A stretch of 64,000 nt of DNA from Octopus vulgaris (Eukaryota). Under the pieces are notes generated by a model that was given only the letters and a program-made list of their open reading frames with translations, ran no database searches and was not told the DNA's origin. The position numbers were made by a program, and so were the translations under genes. The stretch covers positions 185,380,001-185,444,000 of the forward strand of contig OX597814.1 in NCBI GenBank assembly GCA_951406725.2, written 5' to 3'. Positions 16,720 to 60,089 of the stretch are shown here, piece after piece (position 1 is the stretch's first letter; each line of letters begins with the position of its first letter).

Positions 16720-17308
16720 ATGATAAGAGTAAATAATTTCTATAAAGGCTTTTAAAAAAAACCCAATTATTTACTGGTAGAATTCGGTATGTAAATATAG
16801 CCGATTACCGGCAGGAACTTCCGTAAAGTTCAGTATATATATTGTATATAAGAAAAAGGGACAGGCAAAACAGGTTGCTTGACCGCATACCGAAAAAATA
16901 GAAATAGCAGTCAAGAATGCTTATTTCTATCAAAGTTGGACTCCGGGCATGACAGACCCTGTAATTCACATATGCAAAACAGAAGGAATAGATAACGAAT
17001 ACGAAGTCTGGCGGTTATCTGTGAACATCATGTTTCTGGATTATAAACATATTGAATATATATTCCATATATTTTGATATATATTTCATATATATTGCAA
17101 ATATATTTCACATCCTTCTTCAGCACAGCTTTCCATTGAAAAAGATTTATCATAGATTTATCAAATGCTACGTACCTCAAACCTTCTGACCATGCGACAT
17201 CAAAATATTTGAAGTAAGTGAGCAAAGGCTAAACCTACATAGACGTTTGACAGGGTCTGTCATGCCCGGAGTCCAACTTTGATAGAAATAAGCATTCTTG
17301 ACTGCTAT
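16720..17308 (-). mobile_element. Penelope-like non-coding repeat with hammerhead motif and a perfect 59-bp inverted repeat
   Basis: 16904-16962 is the exact reverse complement of 17250-17308; hammerhead lies between the arms. Confidence 0.6.
17019..17128 (-). ncRNA. Type-I hammerhead motif with a long AT-rich insertion in stem II
   Basis: Reverse strand CTGTG-CTGAAGA-aGGAT-[~70 nt]-ATCCa-GAAA-catgatg-TT-CACAG; 5-bp stem I, helix III ACAT-G-ATGT. Confidence 0.55.
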
Positions 17309-18412
17309 ATATATATATATATATACATATATATTTACTTTTACTTTTATTTTTACTTGTTTCAGTCATTTGACTGCGGCCATGCTGGAGCACCGCCTTT
17401 AGTCGAGCAAATCGACCCCGGGACTTATTCTTTGTAAGCCCAGTACTTATTCTATCGGTCTCTTTTTGCCGAACCGCTAAGTGACGGGGACATAAACACA
17501 CTAGCATCGGTTGTCAAGCGATGCTAGGGGGACAAACACAGACACACAAACACACACACATACATATATATATATATAACGGGAAGCTTTATGAAAATAG
17601 ACAAATGACGAAGGCAGGTGGAAAACAAACAAACAATTGTATTAGTATGGCGCTCAGGAAATATAAATAAAACAAGTCTTTAACGTTTCGAGCCTACGCT
17701 CTTCAACAGAAAGATACACAGAGAGAAAAATAACACAGAAAGAAGGAGAGAAAAAAATGCGTGCAGTAACTAACGAATCAACATGGCGATCTTATATATA
17801 TATATATATACAAAAAGCAATAAAGATTCAAGTTAATTTAAATGAATTTACTTGAATATGGTACCTAACTTAGATAGAAATAAGCATTCTTGACTGCTAT
17901 ATATATATATATATATATATATATACATATATATTTACTTTTACTTTTATTTTTACTTGTTTCAGTCATTTGACTGCGGCCATGCTGGAGCACCGCCTTT
18001 AGTCGAGCAAATCGACCCCGGGACTTATTCTTTGTAAGCCCAGTACTTATTCTATCGGTCTCTTTTTGCCGAACCGCTAAGTGACGGGGACATAAACACA
18101 CTAGCATCGGTTGTCAAGCGATGCTAGGGGGACAAACACAGACACACAAACACACACACATACATATATATATATATAACGGGAAGCTTTTTATGAAAAT
18201 AGACAAAAGACGAAGGCAGGTGGAAAACAAACAAACAATTGTATTAGTATGGCGCTCAGGAAATATAAATAAAACAAGTCTTTAACGTTTCGAGCCTACG
18301 CTCTTCAACAGAAAGATACACAGAGAGAAAAATAACACAGAAAGAAGGAGAGAAAAAAATGCGTGCAGTAACTAACGAATCAACATGGCGATCTTATATA
18401 TATATATATATA
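17281..18412. repeat. Near-identical ~600-bp tandem duplication containing a SINE 3' half and a ~200-bp hammerhead-like element
   Basis: 17281-17811 repeated at 17873-18412 with few differences. Confidence 0.9.
17578..17793 (-). mobile_element. ~200-bp non-autonomous element with variant hammerhead (core at 17677-17714); duplicate at 18178-18395
   Basis: Reverse strand TCTTT-CTGTTGA-a-GAGC-gtag-GCTC-GAAA-CG-TT-AAAGA; flanked by (TA)n. Confidence 0.65.
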
Positions 18413-18439
18413 TATATATATATATATATATATATATAT

Positions 18440-18865
18440 ACGACAGGCTTCTTTCAGTTTCCGTCTACCAAATCCACTCACAAGGCATTGGTTGGTCCGG
18501 GGCTATAGCAGAAGACACTTGCCCAAGATACCACGCAGTGGGACTGAACCCGGAACCATGTGGTTGGTTAGCAAGCTACTTACCACACAGCCACAGAGAG
18601 AGAGAGAGAGATCTTTATATATATATATATATATATATATATATATATATATATATATATATATATATATATATATATATATATATATATATATATATAT
18701 ATATATATATATATATATATATATATATATATATATATATATACATACAGATATATTAGAGGCTATAGTAGAAGACATTCTTGCCCAAGACGCCGCGCAA
18801 TGGGACTGAACCCGGAACCACATGGTTCGGAAGCAAACTCCTTACCACACAGCCAAGCCTGTGCT
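18440..18865 (-). mobile_element. Two tRNA-derived SINE 5' halves (TGGCTGTGTGGTAAG family)
   Basis: Reverse strand GGCTGTGTGGTAAG...GGTTCCGGGTTCAGTCCCA...CTTGGGCAAG. Confidence 0.8.
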
Positions 18866-19162
18866 TTTAACCACGCCTACGACAAGTTTCAAAAAGTTGA
18901 TAAAACTAACGCAACCTTATTAAACATGACAGTTTATCTGTCCCCTTTTTAAAATCAGTTTAGTCTTCGTTCTAATGAGAACCATTGGCCTAGACATTTG
19001 TGATTGTTTGATGTCATGTCTGTCTTCAAGATCATTAGCTGTCCTAATATGTTTGTTATGTTTTCCCCTTTTAATTCTTTGAAATCATTTTCTAAGGAAT
19101 GGTCTCTAAGGAACATGGCTCCATCACAGGAATTTAGATATTAGCAACCATATAGAGTTTCT

Positions 19163-19800
19163 TGTATATATGTAAGTATACGTTTATGTATGTATGTATG
19201 TATGTATGTATGTATGTATGTATGTATGTATGTATGTATGTATGTATGTATGTAAGTGTATATATATACTATGTATATACATATATACATATGTATGCAT
19301 ATATGTATGTACATATGAATGTATGTATGTATTATTTATGTATATATATTTACATATATATATACACTATGTATATAGGTATATACATATGTATGCATAT
19401 ATGTACATATGTATGTATGTATATATACTATGTATATGGGTATATACATATGTATGCATATATGTTCATATGTATGTATGTATATATACTATGTATATGG
19501 GTATATACATATGTATGCATATATGTATGTACATATGTATATATGTACATATGTATGTATGTGTATATGTATGTAAGTATATATATATATACTATGTATA
19601 TAGATATATACATATGTATGCATATATGCATGTACATATGTATGTATGTACATATGTATGTATGTATCTAGGTATGTATGCATGCATGCATGTATGTATG
19701 TATGTATGTATGTATGTACATATGTATGTATGTATGTATGTATGTATGTATGTATGTATGTATGTATGTATGTATGTGTGTATGTATGCATGCGTGTTGA
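19163..19800. repeat. (TATG)n/(TA)n compound microsatellite with ~60-bp higher-order repeats
   Basis: Recurrent ATACTATGTATATRGRTATATACATATGTATGCATAT units. Confidence 0.85.
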
Positions 19801-20233
19801 TATACGTTTTCCTGGTTTTAGTTTTCGAATATCTTACCAATAGAGAAAGAGTCAGTTTCTAGCCTAGAAACAGGATTCCTACGTTGGAATTCGTACAGCA
19901 TCATTGGTGTACTCATATATGCACGTATGTATGCATGTATATATAAAAATAAATGTGTGTGTGTGTGTAGACGTATGTATGTAAATAGGTAGGTAGGTAG
20001 GTAGGTATTTAGATAGTTAGGTAGGTAGGTATGCATGGATGTATGCATGTATGCATAAAGCATACATGCGTATACATCTGTATGTTCTTACTCATACATG
20101 TGCAGGCATTGATGTCACTAACTATATGGATTTGTTTGATTTGACTTAAATATATATATATATATATATATATATATATATATATATATATATATATATA
20201 TATATATATATATAATTCATTCACACACACACA

Positions 20234-58288: not shown

Positions 58289-58735
58289 TGTTTATCATTG
58301 TTTCAGAAAACTTGCTGCTTGCAGTGCAAATAATTTTTTTTTTGTCAGTTCGTAGATATATGCACTGATCAGAAAAACAGTTTTGTTCGTTGAAATTATA
58401 ACCCGATCTAGTGGTCTCTTTAGGCTCAAAAGGTCCAGCTACTTCTAGCTTATGAGACAACATGTCAAAACATAAGTGTCCCACAATCCCTTGTGCTAAT
58501 GAGCCATGCGTGTTATGAAAGCGTCTTCATCATAAATTGTAGAAATTGTTCTCTTGTGACATATACAACAACAACTAGCATATTTGCATTTAAACATGCT
58601 GAAATGTATTCAGATAAATGTGCTAGTCAACAATTCAGATTTCCTTGTATACAATGAAAATAATGATTTATTCACAGTTTATTAGAAAATATAAAAATTA
58701 CTCCAATACAGAATAATATAATAATTAGCAGTATA

Positions 58736-59405
58736 CGCGCAGGAGTGGCTGTGTGGTAAGTAGCTTGCTTACCAACCACATGGTTCTAGGTTCAGTCCTA
58801 CTGCGTGGCACCTTGGGCAAGTGTCTTCAACTATAGTCTCGGGCCGACTAAAACCTTGTGAGTGGATTTGGTAGATGGAAACTGAAAGAAGCCTGCCTTA
58901 TATATGTATATATATATATATTTCTATACTACCCACAAGGGGCTAAACATAGAGGGGACAAACAAGGACAGACATAGGTATTAAGTCGATTACATCGACC
59001 CCAGTGCGTAACTGGTACTTAATTTATTGACCCCAAAAGGATGAAAGGCAAAGTCGACCTCGGCAGAATTTGAACTCAGAATGTAACGACAGACGAAATA
59101 CCGCTAAGCATCTCGCCCGACGTACTAACGTTTCTGCCAGCTCGCCGCCTTTGTATATATATATATATATGTGTGTGTGTGGGGAGGGGGTGTATGTTTG
59201 TGTGTCTGTGTTTGACTCCCCCACCAACATCACTTGGCAACTGATACTGGTGTGTTTACGTCCCCGTAACTCAGCGGTTTGACAAAAGAAACTGATAGAA
59301 TAAGTACTAGGCTTACTAAGTCCTGGGGTCAATTTGCTCAACTAAAGGTGGTGCTCCAGCATGGCCACAGTCAAATGACTAAAACAAGTAAATGAGTAAA
59401 AGAGA
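58736..59405 (+). mobile_element. TGGCTGTGTGG-family SINE with a Nin-SINE monomer (58918-59151, minus) nested in its (TA)n
   Basis: Head 58736-58900, 3' half 59195-59405; nested element has full head AAGGCGGCGAGCTGGCAG. Confidence 0.85.
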
Positions 59406-59612
59406 GTATAGAGTAATATTAAATATCTGAGTGTGATATAAACAGTAGCAATATGGAATCATGACATATAATTGCCAACAAAGTGTGGCGTCCTATAAGG
59501 GACAGTGCTACTAACATTTATAACCTCTTCCAGCTGGCTAACGACACACATTCTGTGTCTGATTAGTATTTGTGAGGGGAGGTCATCACTCTCATCTCTA
59601 GCCTTACGTGAT

Positions 59613-59659
59613 ACATACAGACTCGAGTTTCTGGGTGATTACCCATCCTCAGTGTGTGT
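59613..59659 (-). ncRNA. Type-I hammerhead ribozyme
   Basis: Reverse strand ACACACA-CTGAGGA-TGGGTaatcACCCA-GAAA-ctcgag-TC-TGTATGT (6 of 7 bp stem I). Confidence 0.8.
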
Positions 59660-60004
59660 TAATCACCAGCTAGTGATAAAAACTCACTCCACTCAAAAAA
59701 TGCTAGATGCTTTTTCTCGCGACAAACTGTCGCTGATCTTCAAAAAGGAGAAATAAGCTATATTAAATCTCTGAGCGAGATGCAAGCAATAGCAATACAG
59801 AATCATAACAAATAATTACCAACTAAATGTAGCATCCTATACAGGACAGAGCCACTGACGTTTATAGCCCCAGGAAGACATCTCTTACTACTGGCTAATA
59901 ACACATATTCTGTGTCTGATTAGTATTTCAGCAATGGTTTGTTGCTGGAAAAAGCATATAGTATTTTGTGAGTGGAATAAGTTTATATCACTAGCTGGTG
60001 ATTA

Positions 60005-60051
60005 ACACATGCTGAGGATGGGTAACCACCCAGAAACTCGAGTCCATGTGT
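60005..60051 (+). ncRNA. Type-I hammerhead ribozyme, intact core, GUC cleavage triplet
   Basis: ACACATG-CTGAGGA-TGGGTaaccACCCA-GAAA-ctcgag-TC-CATGTGT: 7-bp stem I, 5-bp stem II, palindromic helix III ACTCGAGT; predicted cut after 60044. Confidence 0.88.
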
Positions 60052-60089
60052 ATCATGTAGGGCTAGGGACGGGAACATTATAATTGTTT

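Follow-up and report, generated by a model that had tools for sequence, protein, structure and literature searches.

We analysed a 64,000-nt stretch of the Octopus vulgaris genome (NCBI GenBank assembly GCA_951406725.2, contig OX597814.1, forward-strand positions 185,380,001 to 185,444,000), referred to here as the window and numbered from its first letter. The DNA is rich in microsatellites and short interspersed elements (SINEs), and short tandem repeats mask 21.5% of it. Four loci, A (16720-17308), B (23912-24474), C (46173-47225) and D (59416-60074), and a dispersed family, E, are considered here in relation to Penelope-like elements (PLEs) and to the hammerhead-bearing repeats known as retrozymes. 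The ribozyme (sense) strand is the minus strand at A, B and D. B and D are the main subject.

At B, a complete 352-nt unit occupies 23912-24263 on the minus strand (GC content 0.42), with the 3′ end of the element at 23912. It contains a type I hammerhead with a palindromic stem III (24128-24176, minus strand; C3 at 24168, N17 at 24136). Upstream of the unit lies a direct copy of the unit's own 3′ end (24264-24300, minus strand), a terminal redundancy of 37 bp that encloses a 7-bp hairpin and is identical at 34 of 37 bp with a period of 352. An inverted arm (24299-24474, plus strand) comes next and copies unit positions 24144-23970, with 160 of 175 columns identical (91%). The arm begins within stem III, at a point 9 nt upstream of where cleavage occurs, and the catalytic core is thus absent from it; it overlaps the direct part by 2 nt and the target-site duplication (TSD) by 3 nt. 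The two TSD copies, 15 bp each (TTTATATTTTACTTG), match exactly and lie on the plus strand at 23897-23911 and 24472-24486, the latter adjoining the end of an abundant SINE-like repeat. Since the TSD flanks both ends, the whole structure at B represents one insertion. An Rfam match to MIR2646 at B was set aside, as it merely reflects the long inverted repeat.

The same parts are found at D. A complete 344-nt unit, homologous to that of B, spans 59416-59759 on the minus strand (GC content 0.40) and contains a type I hammerhead (59612-59660, minus strand; C3 at 59652, N17 at 59620). The upstream direct copy (59760-59928, minus strand) repeats unit positions 59571-59416 at 81% identity with a period of 344, differing by 29 mismatches in 156 aligned columns plus a 13-nt indel. 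The inverted arm (59928-60074, plus strand) copies unit positions 59736-59590 with 124 of 147 positions identical (84%) and carries a hammerhead of its own (60004-60052, plus strand; C3 at 60012, N17 at 60044). With a 7-bp stem I, a 5-bp stem II and a palindromic stem III, this is the best preserved ribozyme of the window. The count of hammerheads is therefore one at B and two at D, where they lie on opposite strands at a distance of 360 bp. The stem I changes between the two D ribozymes (TG/CA versus CA/TG) were rejected as covariation, since independent CpG decay gives both. Folded as circles, the B and D units reach z scores of −3.4 and −3.0 against shuffled sequences.

Alignment bears out the 352- and 344-bp periods and the adjacent inverted copies that the initial annotation described at B and D. 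Its view that the two share no obvious sequence does not hold: they are collinear and identical at 190 of 317 columns (60%), with their ribozymes in register and both cleavage sites in alignment column 145. The local alignment score of 171 was reached in none of 500 shuffles (mean 113.6 ± 8.2), and real-window controls gave best scores of only 141 (220 stretches) and 140 (290 stretches). The similarity downstream of the ribozyme, taken alone, was equalled in 0 of 2000 shuffles. The 3′ ends fall 12 columns apart, at column 375 in B and column 363 in D, shortly past a small hairpin. When eight candidate regions were aligned across families (28 pairs, both orientations), only the B-D pair was strong (z=6.6); weaker pairs, between A and E (z=3.8) and between E and a further region, H (z=4.2), may reflect T-rich composition or the ribozyme itself. 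The D unit has a 13-nt deletion, and the block that it lost is kept in the D upstream copy and in B, which gives ancestral units of about 352 nt (B) and about 357 nt (D). Direct and inverted pieces diverge equally from the unit (8% and 9% at B; 19% and 16% at D, Fisher p=0.54), as expected if each structure arose in one event and then aged. No further copy of this family was found within the window.

A closed unit of about 350 nt that recurs in two subfamilies only 60% identical points, on sequence grounds, to a dedicated non-coding unit, since chance truncations of 3-kb elements would hardly give such a recurring unit. The same recurrence sets B and D apart from the simple truncated ends of autonomous PLEs, which the initial annotation had named as the outcome that would overturn its proposal. 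Six-frame translation and Pfam searches found no protein coding in the B and D units. The Pfam scan covered 201 stop-to-stop frames of the window (200 frames of 55 aa or more that lie outside the masked microsatellites, and one added frame); its sole match above the curated cut-off was an APE endonuclease (49738-50031). None of the 201 frames matched a PLE reverse transcriptase (RT) or GIY-YIG domain, in agreement with the initial annotation, in a scan that is weak for decayed fragments and was run with no PLE protein queries. No locus here qualifies as an autonomous PLE. The ribozyme traits, the 15-bp TSD at B and the PLE layout support the view of B and D as hammerhead elements of the Penelope type that encode no protein and were most likely mobilized in trans. 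The proposal of a diverse population of non-coding ribozyme elements moved in trans by a Penelope RT is thus kept as regards type and probable mobilization, and its diversity was overstated. Penelope families are reported to have been recently active in O. vulgaris (PMC13282606), and a term count found no mention of ribozymes in the main text of that paper.

The arms of B and D show a particular geometry. Their outer ends lie at non-homologous positions of the family alignment (column 317 in B, column 174 in D), yet in each insertion the arm ends a short distance upstream of the 5′ end at which the direct part is truncated (column 339 and a gap of 21 nt in B, column 193 and a gap of 18 nt in D). 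If positions are uniform over 350 nt, the chance of both arms ending within 25 nt upstream is about 0.005, and within 25 nt on either side about 0.02; both values are post hoc, with n=2. Read on a tandem template, the arm and the direct part are successive stretches of a single RNA, and the 5′ stretch is flipped. The template spanned in this way measures at least 585 nt (1.7 units) in B and at least 678 nt (1.9 units) in D, and it ran unbroken over the cleavage site in both passes, since the B arm continues 9 nt beyond this site and the D arm holds a whole ribozyme. By analogy with L1 elements, we infer that this geometry is a twin-priming pattern.

Taken together, we consider it probable that B and D are dispersed, decaying copies of one ~350-nt non-coding hammerhead family that derives from Penelope pseudo-long terminal repeats (pLTRs), is of retrozyme type, and was inserted by twin priming. 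In the scheme that we propose, a tandem locus elsewhere would give rise to transcripts about two units long or longer. A PLE RT/GIY-YIG protein, presumably acting in trans, would make a staggered double-strand cut in AT-rich DNA; at B, the TSD shows a stagger of 15 bp. The first DNA end would prime just past the small hairpin, at a near-fixed site that lies some 205-225 nt downstream of where the ribozyme cuts. The 3′ end of the copies is indeed roughly fixed, and a first cDNA of 1.1 units (B) or 1.5 units (D) would leave the terminal redundancy. The second DNA end may then prime on the same RNA about 20 nt upstream and copy 150-175 nt, giving the inverted arm, and the two cDNAs would join through 1-2 nt of microhomology. 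An uncleaved tandem transcript is the rather probable template, with a re-ligated circle a good deal less probable. More tentatively, and with somewhat less than even confidence, we suggest that PLE-type machinery, at least with such non-coding passengers, forms inverted repeats through two priming events on one uncleaved multi-unit RNA, so that the outer end of the arm would follow the point where the direct part is truncated and not the 3′ end of the element. That a PLE primes from two ends is plausible because a purified Poseidon PLE protein cleaves and extends both strands; it also starts internally, prefers AT-rich targets, uses uncleaved RNA and is predicted to form a dimer (PMC11167929).

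Several observations weigh against this interpretation. Only two insertions, B and D, show the arm geometry, and B on its own can be read as a canonical inverted copy minus a 58-nt tail. A departs from the second-priming step, as the end of its arm lies 184 nt within the direct part and it has no redundancy. Neither an autonomous PLE partner nor a tandem source locus was found in the window. The similarity between B and D upstream of the ribozyme is weak when taken alone (135 of 2000 shuffles were as good), and the 12-column offset between their 3′ ends could be a boundary error. The first pair of stem I is mismatched in the B ribozyme, and Rfam returned no hammerhead match at B or at D. No TSD was found at D, where the arm could have been trimmed later. 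In a background test for the TSD at B, 13 of 1000 random position pairs also gave exact matches of at least 15 nt, probably owing to tandem repeats, and the 15-bp TSD exceeds the 8-10 bp of rotifer Penelope (PMC3846280) and fits the 14-16 bp of L1 (PMC2912911).

Other explanations of B and D were therefore considered. Copies longer than one unit could arise if, as the initial annotation inferred, the template is a circular RNA; a monomeric circle that is reverse transcribed over more than a single round would yield copies that are permuted and terminally redundant. Such a template would account for the closed ~350-nt unit, for units that fold better than shuffled sequences as circles, and for cDNA that continues across the cleavage site in the manner expected of a ligated circle. 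Circles have been demonstrated for mussel, coral and axolotl retrozymes (PMC7229834), and circular templates were proposed in 2014 for PLE copies longer than a unit (PMC4209133). The scattered circular permutation that the initial annotation had suggested is not what we see, however: besides the near-coincident 3′ ends of B and D, all four independent E copies share an end. Both inferred templates fall below two units, and a circle would be covered by cDNA after one round, which would make a second primer 20 nt ahead harder to explain than on a linear tandem. Divergence patterns, including those of the D copies polarized with B as outgroup, do not separate a circle from a linear dimer. A circle that is primed at one fixed site may still apply; on balance, we regard more than one round on a monomeric circle as unlikely. 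Still less likely is that B and D are the ordinary debris of autonomous PLEs, that is, 5′-truncated partial tandems with an inverted copy made by template jumps or self-priming, and no dedicated family. The layout is standard for PLEs (PMC8557442, PMC3846280), for whose inverted repeats self-priming on an antisense template has been proposed (PMC3846280), and opposite-strand hammerhead pairs 100-700 bp apart are on record (PMC4209133); for A this is a good fit. At B and D it would require two independent truncations near the same homologous position in 60%-identical families, and the scans of reading frames detected no coding remnant. In addition, the canonical inverted copy ends at the 3′ end of the element, with or without a 30-40 bp tail (PMC8557442, PMC3846280), whereas the arms here stop 58 nt (B), 174 nt (D) and 184 nt (A) short of it. 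The canonical junction is often a fold-back; here, the junctions join distant unit positions.

A different enzyme is a further possibility. The same RNAs could be mobilized by a long interspersed element (LINE) of the L1-Tx1, RTE, CR1 or Dong-R4 type and not by a PLE protein. The inversion geometry, the microhomologies and the TSD length all fit L1 (PMC2912911), LINEs are abundant and active in O. vulgaris (PMC13282606), the window contains an APE-endonuclease remnant, and mobilization by LINEs was left open for retrozymes (PMC7229834). Nevertheless, the 3′ ends of B and D have neither a poly(A) nor a simple-repeat tail, the hammerheads are of PLE type, and B and D are dissimilar to the LINE remnants in the window; we consider LINE mobilization improbable. 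Finally, the inversions might have formed after insertion, by replication template switching or repair, in which case they would be uninformative on retrotransposition. The window does contain local rearrangement, namely a tandem duplication (~99%) around 17359-18394, and no TSD was found at D. Against this, the B arm ends exactly at an intact TSD copy and the arms and direct copies are of equal age, which makes post-insertion inversion the most remote of the explanations considered. Twin-primed insertion of a dedicated, Penelope-derived unit is the reading that we carry forward for B and D.

Locus A represents an independent and young insertion of PLE type, unrelated to B and D, that also carries an inverted copy. 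It lies between (TA)n tracts at 16720-17308 (minus strand), where the edge of the microsatellite is taken as the outer boundary (16720). A 59-bp stretch inside its direct part (16904-16962) is the exact complement of the right arm, a perfect inverted copy at 17250-17308. Between the arms lies a minus-strand type I hammerhead (17018-17129; C3 at 17123, N17 at 17024) whose stem-loop II is long and AT-rich and whose minimum free energy fold is a three-way junction (z=−3.1). The initial annotation had described this arrangement correctly. No terminal redundancy was found at A, and a 64-aa frame within it matched only two unrelated repetitive proteins. A MITE (miniature inverted-repeat transposable element) with 59-bp terminal inverted repeats (16904-17308) is a less likely identity for A, given that no TSD of at least 4 bp was found and that an intact hammerhead lies inside. 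The last 31 bp of the right arm recur at 17867-17897, accompanied by short unique filler, as part of the local tandem duplication described below for E.

Locus C is a partial tandem of no assigned class. It lies between (TA)n tracts at 46173-47225 with a period of 876 and 177 bp of redundancy; the two redundant copies (46173-46349 and 47049-47225) differ by one mismatch in 176 columns, as the initial annotation's reading of a terminally redundant element would have it. Neither an inverted arm nor a hammerhead was found at C. A minus-strand candidate at 46539 passed none of the descriptor scans; it possesses CTGATGA, but the GAAA box is missing and the predicted fold is a simple hairpin. For C, a type II hammerhead or a shifted one was also weighed from the sequence and rejected. 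The single architecture formerly proposed for all four loci is therefore confined to B and D, which alone combine the hammerhead, the redundancy and the inverted copy; A lacks redundancy, and C lacks both the inversion and the hammerhead.

Hammerhead calls in the window rest on custom descriptors, the final one of which allows a palindromic stem III and a long stem II. A strict descriptor was dropped as it missed ribozymes with a palindromic stem III. Descriptor scoring was adjusted after the data had been seen, and each version was given its own shuffle null. The final descriptor passes seven loci (17123−, 17709−, 18311−, 24168−, 47920+, 59652− and 60012+), compared with a mean of 0.157 and a maximum of two loci in 300 shuffles. 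These seven loci fall into three families, A, B/D and E, and only these beat chance, where about a dozen motifs from at least six families had been counted in the initial annotation. The ribozymes show PLE/metazoan traits, namely a palindromic stem III and, in B and E, an extra nucleotide before stem II. Three of the seven have a non-canonical U6, and two of these three belong to one local duplication. Candidates at 57823+ and 22302+ scored at chance level, and a candidate at 10918− passed none of the descriptor scans; the latter is a degenerate hammerhead-like motif within a T-rich minus-strand element between microsatellites (10770-11220). Window-wide, Rfam gave no hammerhead among the 150 matches listed of 223, a list swamped by matches to microsatellite-like miRNAs.

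The U6 motifs belong to E, a short, fixed-end PLE-like family of about 200 bp. The first copy (17578-17792, minus strand; C3 at 17709) carries a minimal hammerhead-like motif with U6, and the second (18179-18394, minus strand) lies within a ~99% local tandem duplication of the first and is not independent of it. The duplicated segments, 17359-17792 and 17959-18394 (within 17275-18394), represent either a recent duplication or an assembly artefact. The remaining copies are at 37692-37887 (minus strand; C3 at 37816), 47847-48043 (plus strand; C3 at 47920) and 57485-57649 (minus strand), the last of these from a search with a profile built from three of the E copies. Two copies lie beyond the descriptor passes, and their motifs are decayed. 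The ends of the four independent copies coincide within a few nucleotides, three of them directly at (TA)n, and no partial tandem forms pLTRs. Around the 47847-48043 copy and its (TA)n flanks there is a 35-bp direct repeat (47775-47809 and 48088-48122), possibly a long target duplication; it was rejected as redundancy of the E unit, being flanking SINE-like sequence.

All five E copies have U at position 6, and the CUGANGA box is not intact. [quoted passage not shown] Across 164 ungapped columns of the four independent copies, the sole column with four different letters is N7, a position free of constraint, and position 17 varies between U and A. This pattern of variation suggests ribozyme-like constraint, and E may be a natural U6 hammerhead variant that is subject to it. 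Alternatively, the motif could be read in a shifted register, with U3, a variable position 4 and a bulged stem I, or it could be a dead amplified motif. A literature search for A6U hammerheads returned, among the matches listed, only twister ribozymes.

The surroundings contain further repeats. A, B and D each adjoin the AT-rich end of a member of one abundant SINE-like family (17340-17400, 24472-24529 and 59190-59416), which may point to a shared target preference, although this family is dense in the window. SINE-related sequences also form head-to-tail arrays at 39356-40124, 27413-28256, 7114-7699 and 43977-44778, with a period of about 184 bp at 39356-40087. LINE sequences include a fragment at 15573-15887 that is 88% identical to an Octopus vulgaris protein (next match 53%). 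They also include a minus-strand remnant at 49738-51288, in which the APE endonuclease frame (Pfam PF03372, E=1e-5) is preceded upstream by a basic frame that contains a CCHC-like motif; this remnant may be of Tx1 type. At 21475-22043, perfect 35-bp inverted repeats surround a minus-strand frame (21553-21849) with no relevant Pfam match, which resembles the C-terminus of a mariner transposase. A 188-bp AT-rich near-palindrome at 48128-48315 is 91% self-complementary and may be MITE-like or a fold-back, and at 31959-32519 there is a possible MITE, where 41-bp inverted repeats (90%) enclose one member of a nine-site repeat family.

The long double-stranded RNA (dsRNA) that the initial annotation expected from read-through of the inverted arms is predicted by folding of A, B and D. 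The predicted energies for plus- and minus-strand transcripts are −163 and −179 kcal/mol at A, −333 and −340 kcal/mol at B, and −302 and −291 kcal/mol at D. In such transcripts the arm would pair with the unit, and in D the ribozyme would be buried in the duplex. Insertions of this kind create inverted repeats of 60-175 bp and are thus a possible source of dsRNA. The octopus lineage is known for heavy RNA editing. We found no consistent A-to-I footprint in the copies, where A>G changes account for 7 of 23 mismatches in the D arm and, elsewhere, for 2 of 15, 4 of 29 and 1 of 3. None of this implies a function for the host.

The class to which B and D belong is already known: derivatives of PLEs that bear hammerheads abound in animal genomes, and both in-trans mobilization by PLEs and circular templates have been proposed before (PMC4209133, PMC7229834, 10.64898/2026.07.22.740005). 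A review draws a matching picture of PLEs (PMC6765202). According to a literature search by title, and among the matches listed, a retrozyme-type family in octopus would be a new host record. The unusual detail is that the B and D arms depart from the canonical PLE layout, which offers a countable signature for separating models of PLE inverted repeats. If our interpretation is true, the short repeated unit lets each insertion record the template length and both priming sites, and junctions of this type could decide between twin priming, self-priming and a circular template for PLE integration.

Among known systems, the non-LTR retrozymes are close relatives in form. [quoted passage not shown] B and D resemble them in having a non-coding unit of about 350 nt (350-390 bp in mussel), a type I hammerhead whose stem III is palindromic, a GC content of 40-42%, copies longer than one unit and, at B, a long TSD. 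They differ in that they hold 1.1 and 1.5 direct units and not dimers or multimers, and in the inverted arm, a feature undescribed for retrozymes in the available portions of the cited work. An active retrozyme locus has at least two head-to-tail units, each with a complete hammerhead. Neither B nor D has this, and they are therefore at most dispersed retrozyme offspring; retrozymes are derived from pLTRs, and solo monomers are treated as offspring (10.64898/2026.07.22.740005).

Endonuclease-containing PLEs (Penelope/Poseidon, Neptune and Naiad) share with B and D the partial tandem, the inverted copy at the 5′ side, a TSD around the whole (at B), a minimal hammerhead upstream of an internal 3′ end, and AT-rich or microsatellite targets. 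The partial tandem that forms pLTRs is present in B, C and D and absent from A and E, while an inverted, 5′-truncated copy at the 5′ side occurs in A, B and D. Unlike these PLEs, B and D have no open reading frame for RT or GIY-YIG, their unit is 350 nt as against about 3 kb, their arms end off the element's 3′ end and its 30-40 bp tail, and no fold-back palindrome joins equivalent 5′ ends. A literature search on twin priming with Penelope gave little; the checked match was only in a reference list, and most subscription papers lay outside the search. Twin-primed L1 insertions (PMC2912911) likewise combine an inverted 5′ segment and a non-inverted 3′ segment within one TSD, which B reproduces fully and D in geometry only. 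Similar to L1, there is microhomology at the outer junction (3 nt in B) and at the inversion junction (2 nt in B, 1 nt in D). In contrast to L1, B and D have no poly(A) tail, and their template would be a tandem or circular ribozyme RNA, so that the inverted part duplicates sequence of the insert and yields a long inverted repeat.

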